Shown: positions 2,404 to 54,279 of the stretch, one piece after another
Layout of the letters: each line of letters starts with the position of its first letter
Position numbering within the stretch: position 1 is the stretch's first letter
DNA from: Leucoraja ocellata
Taxonomy: Eukaryota
Direction of reading: 5' to 3'
DNA: 64,000 nucleotides
Assembly: GCA_036785375.1 (NCBI GenBank)
Contig: JAWMAR010000021.1
Location: 4,898,001-4,962,000 of the forward strand
Made by a program: the position numbers and the translations under genes
The notes under the pieces: model-generated
Database searches by the model: none
What the model saw: the letters and a program-made list of their open reading frames with translations, nothing else
Told to the model about the DNA's origin: nothing

Positions 2404-2610
2404 AAAACATAAAATGCTGGAGTAACTCGGTTGGTCAGGCAGCATCTCTGGAGAACATTGACAGGTGACATTTCAGGTCAGGAATGAAAAGGGTTGCAGC
2501 CCGAAAAGTCACCCATCGATGTTATGCAGGGATGCCACCTGACCCGCTGAGTTACTTCACCATTCGGTATCTTTCCTTGGCAAACCAGTATCTGCAGTTC
2601 CTTGTTTCTC
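2404..2610. mobile_element. Fold-back Penelope pLTR-derived element, degenerate
   Basis: gctggagtaactc...ggtcaggcagcatc mirrored by gatgccacctgacccgctgagttact. Confidence 0.65.
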
Positions 2611-2893
2611 CAGTAAGATGATTGGACTGGAGCTTTGCATTTTAATGCATTCTCATTTTTCAGAGTCAGTGGAAAATAAGCATACAGCCTGACCATTTCA
2701 TCTATAATGTTGGCCGACTAAGAAGCAGGAATTATCCAACATGGCTTTCTGATTGTTGCTTGCCTTCATTGAGGCAGGTATTCAGCCTCCAAGAACCTCC
2801 AAGCGACATTCCACGTGGCTTTCTTACCCTACATTTGTACAGTATCTCCCAGACACATTGTGCAGCCATCAACCTATAAACCTTGAGGAAATC

Positions 2894-3015
2894 GGTCTGA
2901 AGAAGGGTCCCGACCCGAAATGTCAACTTTCCATTTTCTCCAGAGATGTTGTCTGGCCCGTTGAGTTACTCCGGCATTTTGTGTCTATCTTTGGTATAAA
3001 ACAGCACCGTCAGTT
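2894..3015 (+). mobile_element. Penelope pLTR fragment with hammerhead-like core
   Basis: ggtCTGAAGAaGGGTcccgACCCGAAAtgtc. Confidence 0.7.
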
Positions 3016-3844
3016 TTTTATTACCTGGAGGAAATATCTTTTTTGGGATAAAAAGCTGACTTTGCATTATTCCTGATATAATGGATCATTTTTGTTTGAA
3101 GTGGTAATTACAGCAGAATCAGGGCATTTAGCCCATTGAATTCACTCTGCCATTCGTTCATGGCTGATTTTTTTTTTTTTTATCCTTCTCAAACCCATTC
3201 TCCTGCGTTCTCCCTGTAACATTCTCCCCGGCGGGCCATGTGGCCAGATGCACAAGACCTGTTGTGCTAGAGGGAACCCGCCGAGCCATCCCCTGCTCCT
3301 TCCCTGGAAACCAGCGATTGGAGAGATGGGAGCCTGAAGAGACTTGAGGAGCAAGGCCATTAGGAGAGAGGCTGCCAGAGGCGCCCCCAAGGCACAAAGG
3401 TGGATGGGTGAGGAGACTGACGTCAGTTCACTGGATGATACAGACGTCCAAGGAAGGCGATGGCTGGAGGCCTGCAGCAGCCTGAGGCTCGCCCAGATTG
3501 GGAGCCGCTCATAAGACCTCAAACATGGACTGCACTTTGAAAATGGCACCAAAGCTTGGCTCCTCAACCATGGGTTCTCAGTGGACTATTTCTGTACACT
3601 TTCCTAATCTAGGACCATTGACCGTAACATTGACAGAGAAATGTCTATGAATGTTAATTATATGGACTTCCAGAAGCCATTTGAAAAGGTCCATAATGGA
3701 AACCTTTAGCTGATACTCATGGGATTGAAGACTAATTATTAACCTCATTAGAGTGACAGAAAGTGAGAGCTCACGGTGTACTGAAAATAACCCCGTTTTG
3801 TAGTTCAAATTTACAAAGAACTAGGATTGTGGGATAAGGAGAGT

Positions 3845-4235
3845 CAAAACTATTTTATTGTCAGATGTCTCAAAACAGAACAATGAAATTTGTACGTGCA
3901 GCAGCGACGTAACAGGTTTGTAAATACAGGACTCAATAGATAATATAACGAACAAGGAAAAGTTCAATTAAAAAATCAATATAGTACCAAAACAAAACAA
4001 AGTCCCAAGTGCATCCCAAGCAATTCGTAGTTTGGAGTTCATAGTGTTCAACAGCCTAATGGTTGTTGGGAAGAAGCTGTTTGTTACAGTTTTCAGACTC
4101 TTCCCGGTGGCAGGAGTGAAATGAGAACATGGCCAGGGTGGTGTTGGTCCTTGATGAGGCTGGCTGCCTTTTTGAGAAAGCGCCTCATAGATCCTTTCAA
4201 TGGTGGGGTGGTCACTACCTGTGATGGAAATGTAC
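3845..4235 (-). mobile_element. Rex1/Babar-type LINE 3' fragment
   Basis: Minus strand encodes, with frameshifts, AAS.IKD.HHPGH...NSFFPTTIRLLN, then a tail ending tgacaataaa. Confidence 0.7.
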
Positions 4236-4688
4236 GTCAATCACCGTACAAAACCCACACGTCTTGAGGTGTGGGAGGAAACAGCTAGAATACGGTCCAG
4301 ACCTCCCATTTACCTTATTGGAGACCTTTGAACTATCTTTAATCAGACTCTGTCTGATTATCTGAATGTTGTACCATTTATCCATTATAGTGGAATCAAG
4401 GGATATGGGTGGAAGGCAGGCACAACATTCTGCTTATTGAATCGGGATGATCAGCCATGATCACAATGAATGGCGGTGCTGGCTCGAAGGGCCGAATGGC
4501 CTCCTCCTGCACCCATTTTCTAAGTTTCTATCTGTACAATATGAACAGCTTGATTGTAATCATGTATAGTCTTTTTGACTGGATAGCATGCTACAAACCT
4601 TTTTCACTGTACACTTGACAATAATAAACTAAACCAAACTAAGGAAACCAGAGCACCCGGAGGAAACCAACGCGGTTCCAGGGAGGAT

Positions 4689-51132: not shown

Positions 51133-51454
51133 ATGGGGAGGTGCGGGCTTTGGGCGAGAGGTTTATTGCTGGTGCTCGGGACTCTGCTTCTACTCCCGGC
51201 CCCCGCCGCTGCCAGCGGTGAGTATTGCCACGGTTGGATGGACACCCAAGGGACCTGGCACGGCGGCTTCCAGTGTCCTGAGCGCTTTGACTCGGGCACG
51301 GCTACCATCTGCTGCGGCTCCTGCTCGCTGCGCTACTGCTGCGCCAGCGCCGACGCCAGGTTAGACCAAGGCCACTGTGACAACGACCAGCCGGCCGGCA
51401 GCAACGATGGCCCGGGCGGCGGCGAGGGCAGAGACGGCGGCAACTCCTCCGCAG
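51133..51454 (+). CDS. SHISA2: SHISA2 coding exon 1 (signal peptide plus Cys-rich Shisa domain)
   Basis: Strong Kozak aacATGG; hydrophobic leader; ASGEYCHGW...FQCPERFD...[14 protein letters not shown]...ARLDQG.CDND; CPERFD and ARLDQG.CDND favour SHISA2 over SHISA3; phase-1 donor GCAG/GTaaga. Confidence 0.9.
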
Positions 51455-51589
51455 GTAAGAAGCCAATGTTCGCCAGTTTGCATTAGCAATAAACAACACA
51501 TGACGGGGCTGGAGGAACTCGGCGGGTCAGGCAGTATCTGTGCAGGAAATAGACAGGCGAATCTGTCTTCTGACTGTCCAATCTCCACC

Positions 51590-51665
51590 GATGCCACCTG
51601 TCCCGCTGGCCAAACCACCCATCTTCAGATGCTACCTGTCCCGCTGGCCAAACCACCCATCTTCA
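51590..51665 (+). repeat. 2 x 38-bp tandem duplication
   Basis: gatgc(c/t)acctgtcccgctggccaaaccacccatcttca twice. Confidence 0.92.
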
Positions 51666-52139
51666 ACTGCTGCCTGACCGCTGAGTTTACTTAAACGGAC
51701 AGCGTATTCTTCATGCTGCCCAATTCGCCCTCCACTCGCTGCCTGACCCACCCGCCGAGTTCCTCCAGCACTTTGTGTTTTGCTGAAGGTTCCAGCACCT
51801 GCAGTTCATTCTGTGCCCTCTTTGTATTACGTTACTTGCGAGAAAGCAGCGGGTCACATCGCTAATGCAGGTAAAACCAAAAGGGCAAACACAAGACGAA
51901 GAAGCAATTGAAGGAAATATTGGCAGCAGCTGATCAAGTGGTCTGTGATCGCGAACAGCAAGCAGCGTGGAGATTAGTTTAGACTGAATTCCCGTGGTGT
52001 GCAACTTGCTAGATCAGTACCTCGGTTTTGCGCTATTGTCCCAGTTACCTAGTATTACTTACCAGGAATGTATTATTGTATATTCATAGTTGCGTCAATC
52101 AACGTGCCTGTGTAAAGTTGCAGCAAGTAAGCATGTTAT

Positions 52140-52350
52140 AATGTGTATGAAGTGAACTGCAAATGCTGGTTTACACCCACGATAGACATAAAATGTTGGA
52201 GTAACTCAGCGGGTCAGGCAGCATCTCTAGAGAAAATGAATAAGGTGACGTTTCCAGTCGAGACCCTTCAGTCTGAAGAAAAAATGTCTCGACCCGAAGC
52301 GTCAACTGTTCATTTTCGCTAGAGATGCTGCCGAATTACTTCAGCATTTC
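52140..52350. mobile_element. Fold-back Penelope pLTR-derived element
   Basis: ggcagcatctctag...ggtgacgtttc...cttcag, then tctgaagaa...cgacccgaagcgtc...ctagagatgctgcc. Confidence 0.78.
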
Positions 52351-54279
52351 ATAAGATCCATGTCGGACATAGAACAGCACAGCTCTGGAACAGGCCCTTC
52401 GGCCCACAATGTCTGTGTCCACCATGATAACAAGTTCAACTAATCTTCTCAACCTGCACATGATCCATATCCCTCCATATCTAAAATACCTCTCTAAACG
52501 CCAATTGACCAGTCCGTGGGACTGTGGAGAGGTACATACAATGGCCCACTGACTGACTGACTGACCTGCGGCGGAGAGGCATGCACTGCGGACTATCTCC
52601 ACAGAGGCACAGATGTGGCACTGGCTGAGGCAAAGCGATGGCAGAACATTGTCTGACACACGAGCGAACGAAAAGTCCGTGGGACAAATGTCCCAGCTCC
52701 CCAATTCTGCCTCCTCTTTAGCTGTGTGTGTGTGTGGAACACAGTGCCTTTGTTACTAAGTTAAATGTTGGAAGAACTCAGCACATGAGGCAGGTGGGAC
52801 TAGTGTAGTTGGGACATGTTGGCCGGTGTGGGCAAGTTGGGCCGAAGGGCCTGTTTCCACACTGTATCACTCTTTGACTCGATGCATTTATAACGTGGGA
52901 GGATAAAACCAGACGACTTTCTCGTCCAGAACGGGGTCCCTGCTTCCGTTCAGAAAGTATGCTCTTGTGGGCTTTAGTCTTTAAGACCAGGGAGACCCAT
53001 GCATTGGAGAAGCTTCAGACAGAGTGTGTCGACATAGACTTTAACTGGAGCACTTGTGCAACTTAACAACCCGGGAGAGCCGTCCGTCTATCGTGGCAGC
53101 GGCGTGCAGGGCGGTGCATTGGGAACGACCGTGCGGAGCCAGCCCTCCCTCACTCGTTGAAAGCGGGAGCAGGACATGTCAGGAACTGACCACATGAGGT
53201 CCGTTGCGTTGCACAGAAAAACATGTAAATGCAAACCGTACCGCCTTTTATGGCGATCGGCAGTTCCCAGCTATTTCTCCATCATTTAGTTGCAACTAAT
53301 TGGTCTCTTTAAAAAAAAAACAAAAGACGGTGTTTAGAAGAGACAGATTCCAGTGTACAATCTTGGGCTGTTATGTTTCATAACATCGCGGTTTATTTCC
53401 AAACCTCACCACATAGAATGCACGGTCTAGGTTTGAAATTGTTGTTATTATCGAAAAATAAGCGTTGTCCACTCATGCTAAAAGTGGCAATTACAAAGAT
53501 AATTTAGTGTTTTTGAGAGGTATTTAATGGTGCATTGCAATAAAATTCAAAGACCACACAAGTGAGTGAAAGTTTGCAAGGTCTCAAAAAAACATCCAGA
53601 CAAAAGCACAACAAATAAACCCGGCAAAATAAATAACTTCCCCGAAGCTTCCAGTCCCAGCGCAGCGAAACAGCTGGGTCAGTTTAACTCACTGGGGATT
53701 TGTTTACTCGTGTGATATTGCTATGAATTATTTCCCACCTTAAAACGATAAACGGCATCACCTGCCTTAACACTAAGTGCTGGAGGAACTCAGCGGGTCA
53801 GGCAGCATCTGTGGAGGGAATGAACAGGCAACGTTCATTCCCTCCACAGATACTGCCTGATCCGCTGAGTTACACCAGCATTTTGTGTCTATGTGCTGGA
53901 GGAACTCAGCGGGCCAGGCAGCATATCTGGAGAGAAGGAATGGCTAACGTTTCGGGCCAAGACTGTTCTTCAGACTCTGAAGTCTACTTCATACTTCTTA
54001 CGTCTCAGAGTCTGAAGAAGGGTCTCCAGCCTTTCGTGTCTATCTTCGATTTAAACCAGCATCTGCAGTTCCTTCCTACAGAGTACCCCCAGCACTGTGT
54101 TCTGTTCAAGATTCCAGCATCTGCAGTTCGTTGTGTCTCCAATCCCTGCCTTAAACTGGGTTCAGTTTAATACCAAGGGCTTGTCCCAATAACATGTTTA
54201 TTCTTTATAGCTAGCCCGATGAGATTTCTACATGTGATAAAGCCCCCCTATCACTAGTTGGTTGCCCATCTGTTTTTTG

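Follow-up and report, generated by a model that had tools for sequence, protein, structure and literature searches.

Short head-to-head pLTR fold-backs in a Leucoraja ocellata contig are an ORF-less extreme of the PLE insertion pattern

The short fold-backs found in a window of Leucoraja ocellata DNA (the whole 64-kb stretch that was analysed) are PLE insertions of the published pattern at its short, ORF-less extreme, each made afresh. Each is a single insertion event, and such events have occurred many times from different pLTR subfamilies. We think it probable that every unit is a one-off, dead-on-arrival insertion by a Neptune-type PLE, in which cDNAs primed on both target strands stop at a boundary and pair.

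A preliminary description had named nine units as inverted pairs of one pLTR terminus, and all nine (9/9) indeed consist of a minus arm and a plus arm of the same PLE pLTR end, placed head-to-head. Two further fold-backs were found (53891–54078 and 60815–60965, the latter also cited as 60821), and the density of short fold-backs is 11 in 64 kb. They are 151–208 bp long, with a composite at 53770 of 371 bp, and folding of four units gave z scores of −9.4 to −15.8 against shuffles in 4/4. Among 47 hand-listed pLTR segments, 17 abutting pairs were counted: 12 head-to-head (chance would give one quarter), three tail-to-tail and two tandem, both of the last arising from nesting. Gaps in the head-to-head pairs run from −6 to 33 nt. 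The units are as follows, with inner ends numbered so that C3 of the hammerhead core is +1.

2406–2613 (2404 unit), fold-back: inner ends +12 and +2; the right arm carries the tail; flanking duplication of 11 bp (2389/2614); within a NUP58-like gene intron
8205–8410, fold-back: old, F-type pLTR; most of stem II missing from both arms; tail right; 12 bp duplication 8189/8416 with one mismatch; NUP58-like intron
26760–26940, fold-back: inner ends −1 and +11; arms matching perfectly over 33 bp; tail right; scripted search without a significant duplication
30758–30952, fold-back: inner ends +4 and +11; tail right; 11 bp exactly duplicated at 30747/30956, more if mismatches are allowed
31468–31640 (31470 unit), fold-back: axis on a TCAG-N-CTGA micro-palindrome; no tail or duplication left
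43540–43725 (43546 unit), fold-back: inner ends +33 (by eye) and −1; weak tail right; candidate 9 bp duplication
47662–47824 (47659 unit), fold-back: B-type; inner ends −3 and −4; internal deletion in the right arm; tail right; host site an older pLTR copy; 10 bp duplication 47649/47822
52148–52350 (52140 unit), fold-back: axis at the TCAG-T-CTGA micro-palindrome; left arm bearing the tail; five non-majority variants common to both arms; intron of a Shisa-like gene
53770–54140, composite: F-type fold-back with axis at about 53834; inner ends +26 and +33; 3 nt microhomology; tail 54082–54140; 10 bp duplication 53761/54145 enclosing the whole
53891–54078, fold-back within the 53770 composite, probably nested: inner ends −3 and −3; tail right; duplication not significant
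60815–60965 (60821 unit), fold-back: tail right; inner ends about +1 and +34, read by eye; duplication of 7 bp at p 0.13
51505–51815, spaced pair: F-type minus arm, then plus arm with tail, about 160 nt of other sequence between
32268–32412, minus strand, solo pLTR end with tail: 10 bp mini fold-back (32398) on the TCAG-T-CTGA micro-palindrome

The 47659 unit has lost most of the length of its own right arm, and its long inverted match is to the older copy that hosts it, beyond the duplication. A pLTR fragment at 31418–31455 adjoins the 31470 unit.

The same build is seen in an EN+ PLE insertion within the window, whose frames are broken.

36612–39697, EN+ PLE insertion, 3.1 kb
36612 to about 37690, its minus arm: endonuclease end, pLTR and tail
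up to 39697, its plus arm: RT, CX4CX2C linker, GIY-YIG and pLTR, without tail

These arms are 88.8% identical over 1 kb, and the target duplication measures 17 bp (36600/39697). GIY-YIG (Pfam E 0.0054, below the curated cut-off) and RT motifs recognised by eye lie directly upstream of the pLTR at 39604 and 36740; endonuclease remnants also precede the pLTR copies at 20735, 47633 and 55733. The Neptune clade is defined by a CX2-5CxxC linker before GIY-YIG plus a CCHH motif, of which Nematis has a reduced form, and from its sequence the CX4CX2C before GIY-YIG would place the 3.1 kb element in Neptune. It has the features of an EN+ PLE insertion: continuity of pLTR, RT and GIY-YIG, an inverted 5'-truncated neighbour, a tail at one end and a target duplication. 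The pLTR that makes up the short fold-backs is the same one that stands continuous with the PLE frame.

Significant target duplications of 9–17 bp (p ≤ 0.015 each) surround the whole structure in 7 of 13 cases, the other six not being significant. Such a duplication was found for 6/11 short structures and for the 3.1 kb element; the remaining 5/11 have no significant one. The two duplications reported earlier are both there (30747/30956 and 47649/47822), and four more short units have their own. The duplication encloses the pair and never sits at the axis. The tail is on one arm only in 11 of the 13 pairs, on both in none, weak in one and absent in one. Non-majority variants were common to paired arms twice as often as in shuffled pairs (p 0.003, 8 units; the permutation test left out 47659, 53891 and 60821, with ≤30 shared columns each). 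Because the duplication lies round the pair, the tail is on one arm and the arms match in subfamily, each unit represents one event and not a meeting of unrelated arms. Alignment gave 65% likeness between the arms of the 2404 unit and 52% for those of 8205; in these two and in 43546 the arms are no more like each other than like other copies.

Ten different junctions occur among the 11 fold-backs, and their arms span at least three pLTR subfamilies (the pLTR tree rests on short sequences and displays no support values, so that only the B and F groups were taken from it). Two fold-backs that share a palindrome axis differ in their arm variants. The suggestion of repeated de novo formation is thus upheld, but that of a non-autonomous family spreading as a unit is not: in this window the fold-backs are no self-propagating family, since neither junction nor ancestry is common to the copies. 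Hairpin subfamilies that were mobilised again may occur elsewhere in the genome.

The position of the axis was mapped against a reference copy, whose cut site was deduced from how PMC4209133 describes type I hammerheads.

39599–39631, plus strand, boundary and minimal hammerhead of the reference copy: TCAG-T-CTGA at 39599–39607; core C3 at 39604; inferred cut after 39631
39495–39602, plus strand, intron-like segment ending at the boundary: GT start in most relatives; pyrimidine tract and CAG end

The axis had been placed at or near the hammerhead core, and this is right for the 5' edge of the core but not for the cut site. Inner ends are not random: they gather some 30 nt 5' of the inferred cut site, at TCAG-T-CTGA. 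By script, 11/22 inner ends and 10/19 solo starts fell within −8 to +5, against 2/22 and 0/19 within +24 to +37, around the inferred cut site. The scripted mapping ran on through the opposite arm for 43546 (left) and 60821 (right), and it went too far at 8205 (left), 31470 (left) and 47659 (right); counts were also made by eye, with 14/22 inner ends at the 5' edge and 4/22 (+26, +33, +33, +34) no more than 6 nt from the inferred cut site. As 18/22 lie upstream of that site, an uncleaved RNA is needed. The micro-palindrome axis is common to two fold-backs and one solo copy, and the 32 nt spacer of the 53891 fold-back (53977–54008) is made of short pieces of the boundary motif. An intact core motif was present in only 2/11 units, most copies having a decayed core, and helix I is just 2–3 bp here. 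With so few ends near the cut and so few intact cores, a role for ribozyme cleavage is not supported. The monomer hammerhead fold was not predicted in the two cases folded, and an Rfam scan gave 10 matches at E ≤ 1, none of them a hammerhead and none at gathering score; eight of the 10 fall on fold-back hairpins, all under gathering score. The intron-like segment is about 200 nt in copies 20735, 47633 and 55733, and position 39496 reads T for C in about 98% of the read depth. No matching splice joint was found among the rows listed, nor was an intron-less pLTR copy seen among the window copies.

Reads over this pLTR copy show a step at the boundary, with depth rising 7.3, 10.4, 6.5 and about 6 fold in four public runs; divergence of subfamilies upstream of the core inflates the step, which is no measure of copy number. 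The best-supported loose read ends are at 39599–39602, and in 7/8 rows the commonest letter before 39601/39602 is G, as a copied cap would give. At least two opposite-strand joints occur among the 15 joint rows listed of 453, in counts that were saturated. No RNA run was listed as containing the unique stretch, a result that says nothing of expression. RNA run X22, which pools paralogues, covered the strands about equally with no start or end peak, and no spot was seen where many RNA molecules begin or end, a weak test for fragmented libraries.

In the origin that we favour, the PLE endonuclease would nick both target strands 9–17 bp apart, and each nicked 3' end would prime cDNA on pLTR RNA, one at an outer start site, which would give the tail, and the other at an inner one. 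Both cDNAs would usually halt after about 100–135 nt, at the boundary just 5' of the hammerhead core. Pairing between antisense cDNA ends requires a self-complementary template, which the TCAG-T-CTGA palindrome and hammerhead stem II provide; the axis would therefore fall at one of these, and repair would complete the insertion. Success on one strand alone would leave a solo stub that shares this 5' end. The hammerhead would not cut; left intact, it would be copied as template and would supply microhomology. Candidate causes of the boundary are an RNA start, at what we take to be an initiator-like motif, a roadblock at a splice acceptor, or stalling in the C-rich tract. A possible though tentative extension is that the stubs are complete run-off copies: capped RNA would start at TCAG-T-CT, reverse transcription by a PLE dimer would begin some 95 and 130 nt further downstream, using both strands of the target, and the cDNAs would meet at the RNA 5' end.

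This model is supported by the like build of the 3.1 kb element with its 17 bp duplication, and by the one-arm tails, duplications, shared arm variants, varied junctions, clustered ends and depth step; moreover, in vitro work on a lizard PLE shows nicking and extension of both strands, with starts at two tail-bounding internal sites (PMC11167929). That element is however of the Poseidon clade, other than the one here, and the 2404, 8205 and 43546 arms, the five short structures without significant duplication and the four by-eye inner ends near the cut site do not favour the model. Snap-back would yield nearly the same product as the proposed double priming and pairing of cDNAs. Here the one-off PLE origin would be the same, but a single cDNA would fold on the micro-palindrome, copy itself and join the other target end one tail-length short. 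We regard this as rather unlikely, even though antisense template as a fold-back source and self-priming have both been proposed (PMC3846280), the axis lies on or beside a palindrome in several units, the mini fold-back at 32398 has a short arm without initiation-site sequence, and the 53977–54008 spacer resembles short jumps round the boundary motif. A 4 bp stem closed by a single-nucleotide loop makes a poor primer within one molecule, and asymmetric junctions (+33/−1, +1/+34) are not simple snap-backs. Tail-primed snap-back also predicts a central T with the tail on the right, and 52140 and 32398, so oriented, read A (two cases, by eye).

Other origins fare worse. It is improbable that some fold-backs were transcribed and re-inserted whole by PLE protein as a hairpin family: the density, the units' own duplications, the shared palindrome axis and the tail with its start sites kept in each unit would suit this, but the subfamilies and junctions are too varied, the two axis-sharing units differ in arm variants, and long perfect duplexes should hinder copying. 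Setting of the axis by hammerhead self-cleavage, with RT running off the cleaved 5' end and switching template there, is very unlikely; both ends of the 53770 fold-back are among the four near the cut, but the 18 upstream ends, the lack of solo starts there, the short helix I and the missing RNA pile-up (weak for fragmented libraries) all oppose it, and cleavage is dispensable for the lizard PLE in vitro (PMC11167929). We give equally little credence to neighbouring arms that arose by independent insertion, homing to existing pLTR copies, or by a later duplication in inverted orientation. Nesting does occur (47659 sits in an older copy, and 53891 is probably nested) and three units lack special arm likeness, but the 12/17 head-to-head pairs with their narrow gaps, the duplication round the pair with none at the axis, and the single tail per pair speak otherwise. 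A DNA-transposon MITE with fixed terminal inverted repeats, suggested by size and hairpin shape, has practically no chance: as the preliminary description held, the origin is a retroelement, the ends being asymmetric and variable, the 9–17 bp duplications having no fixed length and the sequence being continuous with the PLE frame.

In LINE-1 twin priming both target strands prime, with microcomplementarity at the inversion point and the more 5' segment inverted; in the fold-backs, by contrast, one segment is copied into both arms, so that it is duplicated in inverted orientation. EN+ PLEs are known for complex insertions with an adjacent inverted 5'-truncated copy or inverted pLTR, a 30–40 bp tail and a target duplication (PMC3846280, PMC8557442, PMC2377424). 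The fold-backs share with them the head-to-head arms, junction palindrome, one-end tail and enclosing duplication, the 3.1 kb element being a textbook case. They differ in that arms are cut to 60–130 nt and lack a reading frame, the density is 11 per 64 kb, and one 5' boundary is common to them and the solo stubs. The arrangement is not undescribed, as had been thought possible: PMC3846280 and PMC8557442 report inverted pLTRs set head-to-head, with a palindrome where they join, a single tail and a duplication, and PMC4209133 records metazoan PLE hammerheads paired on opposite strands at distances of 100–700 bp. Like the minimal hammerheads of PMC4209133, those here have an extra base before stem II, a tiny palindromic stem III, and mostly solo truncated copies with some opposite-strand pairs, and the intron-like segment ends at helix I as the D. 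virilis intron does; unlike them, the pairs abut or overlap, helix I is 2–3 bp and the core is mostly decayed. In the Anolis Poseidon PAc in vitro, two internal starts bound the tail, both strands are cut and extended and hammerhead cleavage is dispensable, but PAc belongs to another clade and its reading frame begins inside the hammerhead; the available text of that paper (PMC11167929) contains no model of inverted products. Non-LTR retrozymes (bioRxiv 10.64898/2026.07.22.740005) are also non-coding, pLTR-derived and of type I hammerhead, but are direct tandem repeats where the fold-backs are inverted pairs. The available text of that preprint uses 'inverted' just once, within a reference title. 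Retrozyme identity was rejected, as only 2/17 abutting pairs are tandem, both through nesting. The available part of PMC5753468 offers nothing to link the units to ancient vertebrate 'Eulor' hairpins. A hairpin motif scan (pattern spacings of 12–42 nt only) gave no match in viral contigs and one in metagenomes, GC-rich and unrelated, which was rejected. We found no literature description of ORF-less 150–200 bp PLE hairpins in cartilaginous fish, in a search outside which lay subscription journals, supplements, Dfam and Repbase.

Status as a new mobile element or an active ribozyme device is not supported here. The units differ from known PLE insertions in their stub size and lack of an ORF; the mirror-image build itself is known. 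For annotation, the units are a warning, as they mimic MITEs and microRNA precursors. How tandem and inverted PLE ends are made is named an open question in PMC8557442, and many minimal, fully bounded inverted insertions with a sharp shared 5' boundary form a good natural data set for double priming versus snap-back. If the run-off reading is true, the hairpins would be a fossil record of the transcription start, both RT start sites and the joining step; the origin of inverted pLTRs in all PLEs would be explained, and introns would have been seeded with long double-stranded RNA as a side effect.

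Self-comparison of the window, together with a search using seven window copies as queries, showed that a single repeat end, the terminal repeat (pLTR) of a Penelope-like element (PLE), recurs in about 40 segments. The nine units described in the preliminary description as inverted pLTR pairs were confirmed, as a minus arm was directly followed by a plus arm in 9/9, and two extra units were found at 53891 and 60821. Among 17 neighboring pairs (segments within 40 nt of each other, from 47 hand-listed pLTR segments), 12 were head-to-head, three tail-to-tail and two tandem. All 4/4 units folded were far more stable than shuffled sequences (z -9.4 to -15.8). 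Arm likeness was weak in two old units (2404, 65%; 8205, 52%), and the unit at 47659 had lost most of its own right arm to deletion.

Fold-back units by start position (minus arm then plus arm), with inner ends at the inversion junction called by eye and numbered from hammerhead core C3 = +1 (39604 in the reference copy)
2404: +12/+2
8205: -13/+5
26760: -1/+11
30758: +4/+11
31470: at the axis (of the boundary micro-palindrome)
43546: +33/-1
47659: -3/-4
52140: at the axis
53770: +26/+33
53891: -3/-3 with a spacer
60821: +1/+34

Internal deletions were seen in pLTR arms at 8205-8410, 45663-45778, 47762-47824 and 54009-54078, several at 2-3 nt microhomologies, and often took out hammerhead stem II. 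At 51505-51815, 50 nt into the Shisa-like intron, two arms flank about 160 nt of other sequence containing a 45 nt tandem duplication. Fold-backs are inserted in older pLTR copies at 47633-47922 and probably at 53770-54140, consistent with homing into the element's own repeat, and a solo stub at 50810-50840 begins within a (TATC)n microsatellite. The hairpins at 30760-30898 and 53778-53927 gave Rfam microRNA-precursor matches below threshold, a likely source of false annotation.

The host region is vertebrate DNA of 42% G+C, and its repeats are in keeping with a cartilaginous-fish origin. A NUP58-like gene was recognized by a Pfam Nucleoporin_FG2 match at 25286-25663 and by additional exons identified by eye; exon 1 of a Shisa-like gene lies at 51088-51483. 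A NUP58-like intron holds an RVT_1 remnant of a LINE reverse transcriptase (4736-5934). SINE 3' ends, presumably HE1-like, form an inverted pair at 33445-33576 (56 nt arms, 73% complementary), and a MITE-like hairpin of sequence unrelated to the pLTR lies within another repeat at 19188-19413 (86 nt arms, 93% complementary).

In a 3.1 kb insertion (36612-39697), the pLTR end lies downstream of a disrupted reading frame that contains reverse-transcriptase motifs (identified by eye), then a CX4CX2C linker and a GIY-YIG domain (Pfam E 0.0054, below the curated cut-off). The linker matches the Neptune/Nematis definition in PMC8557442. Endonuclease remnants also lie upstream of the pLTR copies at 20735, 47633 and 55733. 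The insertion is itself a head-to-head pair: the tail (a 30-40 bp outer extension) is on the 1.1 kb minus arm and absent from the 2 kb plus arm; the arms are 88.8% identical across 1 kb, and a perfect 17 bp duplication encloses them. The insertion site of this Neptune-type PLE is the AT-rich terminus of a SINE. The pLTR end bears a minimal type I hammerhead motif, in which an additional base precedes stem II and stem III is palindromic and very short, a form described in PMC4209133; an Rfam search of the window gave no hammerhead match. The cut site would fall after +28, and only 2/11 units retain an intact core motif.

Counting the short units, the spaced pair at 51505-51815 and the 3.1 kb insertion, the tail (at most 4 mismatches in 16) was on one arm only in 11/13 paired structures and on both arms in 0/13; the remaining two were 43546, with a weak tail, and 31470, without one. 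A 5-mismatch match in the left flank of 2404, outside its duplication, was at chance level. Direct repeats of 9-17 bp surrounded 6/11 short structures and the 3.1 kb insertion (each p ≤ 0.015 against 400 random pairs); by the same comparison they were not significant at 26760, 31470, 52140, the inner 53885-54081, 60821 and 51505. In the eight best-aligned short units (three with at most 30 shared columns were left out), non-majority non-CpG variants were common to both arms at 0.297 vs 0.147 in shuffled pairings (p = 0.003). Taken one by one, the excess was clear only for 52140, 53770 and the 3.1 kb element, with none for 2404, 8205 or 43546. Together, the tail, duplications and shared variants indicate that the pairs arose as single insertion events.

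The proposal of a non-autonomous family did not hold within the window: arms span at least three pLTR subfamilies in a weak tree (47659 joins the 3.1 kb element, 51505 joins 8205 and 53770, and the others fall elsewhere), and the 11 units show 10 junctions, the two axis units having unlike arm variants. That junctions differ between copies, as the preliminary description had stated, follows from the same count. A MITE reading was rejected, as ends and duplications vary in the units whereas a MITE has them fixed; with the coding frame preceding the same end, this supports the earlier view of a MITE-like look and a retroelement origin.

The preliminary description had placed the axis at or near the hammerhead core, and suggested template switching near the ribozyme site. 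The placement stood for the 5' edge of the core, with 14/22 inner ends by eye; few lay around the putative cut site (4/22 by eye, 2/22 by script, at +24..+37). By script, 11/22 fell at -8..+5 (binomial p = 0.003 over 60 nt, rising to about 0.014 once the choice of interval is allowed for), and by eye at least one arm reached -5..+5 in 10/11 units. Inner ends at +11/+12 fall in stem II. Solo pLTR copies (n = 19) started at -8..+5 in 10 cases, at -10/-11 in two, at +45 in one and at +24..+37 in none; six of the 19 extend at least 40 nt upstream. Depth along 39120-39720 was taken from three sets of contigs (126,064-164,327 records per set) and a single poly(A) RNA run. Depth, which is no copy number, rose across the 5' edge from 1.08 to 7.85 M, 1.43 to 14.9 M, 2.38 to 15.5 M and 1076 to 6734, an upper bound because other subfamilies diverge upstream. 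Among those listed, the best-supported loose ends lay at 39599-39602, each with 572-1215 records from the contig sets, and had mostly dissimilar, AT-rich flanks. As inner ends, solo starts and the depth step meet at one point, this boundary characterizes these PLEs in general. It lies about 30 nt upstream of the putative cut site, and arms reaching it were copied from uncleaved RNA.

From -110 to +95 of the reference copy, only TCAG-T-CTGA at the boundary forms a perfect inverted repeat with 4 bp arms and a one-base loop. An intron-like segment (39495-39602) also ends there, with a GT start (about 98% of depth at 39495-39496), a pyrimidine tract and CAG; it measures 108 nt in the reference copy and about 200 nt in copies 20735, 47633 and 55733. 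It begins at the endonuclease stop codon and finishes at the hammerhead, and between subfamilies the ends are kept while the interior varies in length and sequence. No spliced form was seen among window copies or listed joints. In D. virilis Penelope, an intron ends at helix I (PMC4209133) and lies 46 nt after the transcription start, which by analogy argues for a splice acceptor, one of several candidate causes of the boundary. The boundary motif is also initiator-like. In 7/8 rows the commonest letter immediately preceding 39601 and 39602 was G, which hints at a copied cap but may have another cause.

According to PMC11167929, a lizard PLE in vitro cuts and extends both target strands and uses two internal start sites bounding the tail, hammerhead cleavage being dispensable. 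If opposite target strands each primed a cDNA, a head-to-head pair with 3' ends outward, one tail and a duplication would result. Both cDNAs would be antisense, and annealing would therefore be possible only at template palindromes, namely the boundary motif or stem II. We infer such a double-priming step and regard it as the probable origin of the fold-backs. The main rival, snap-back self-priming that builds the second arm, was proposed in PMC3846280 and seems unlikely here.

The suggestion of an undescribed Penelope product was not sustained. PMC3846280 describes an inverted pLTR adjoining the element, with a junction palindrome, optional tail and 8-10 bp duplications; PMC8557442 gives the same insertion scheme and calls its origin undefined, and PMC4209133 reports hammerhead pairs on opposite strands. 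Retrozymes (bioRxiv 10.64898/2026.07.22.740005) are direct repeats, whereas the window units are inverted pairs. The main texts of the open-access papers searched gave no description of such short, ORF-less forms from cartilaginous fish. The fold-back units are real and their kind is explained, as a short variant of a known PLE insertion pattern; on present evidence they constitute neither a new family nor a MITE nor a ribozyme device. The part worth following is the sharp boundary common to units and solo copies.
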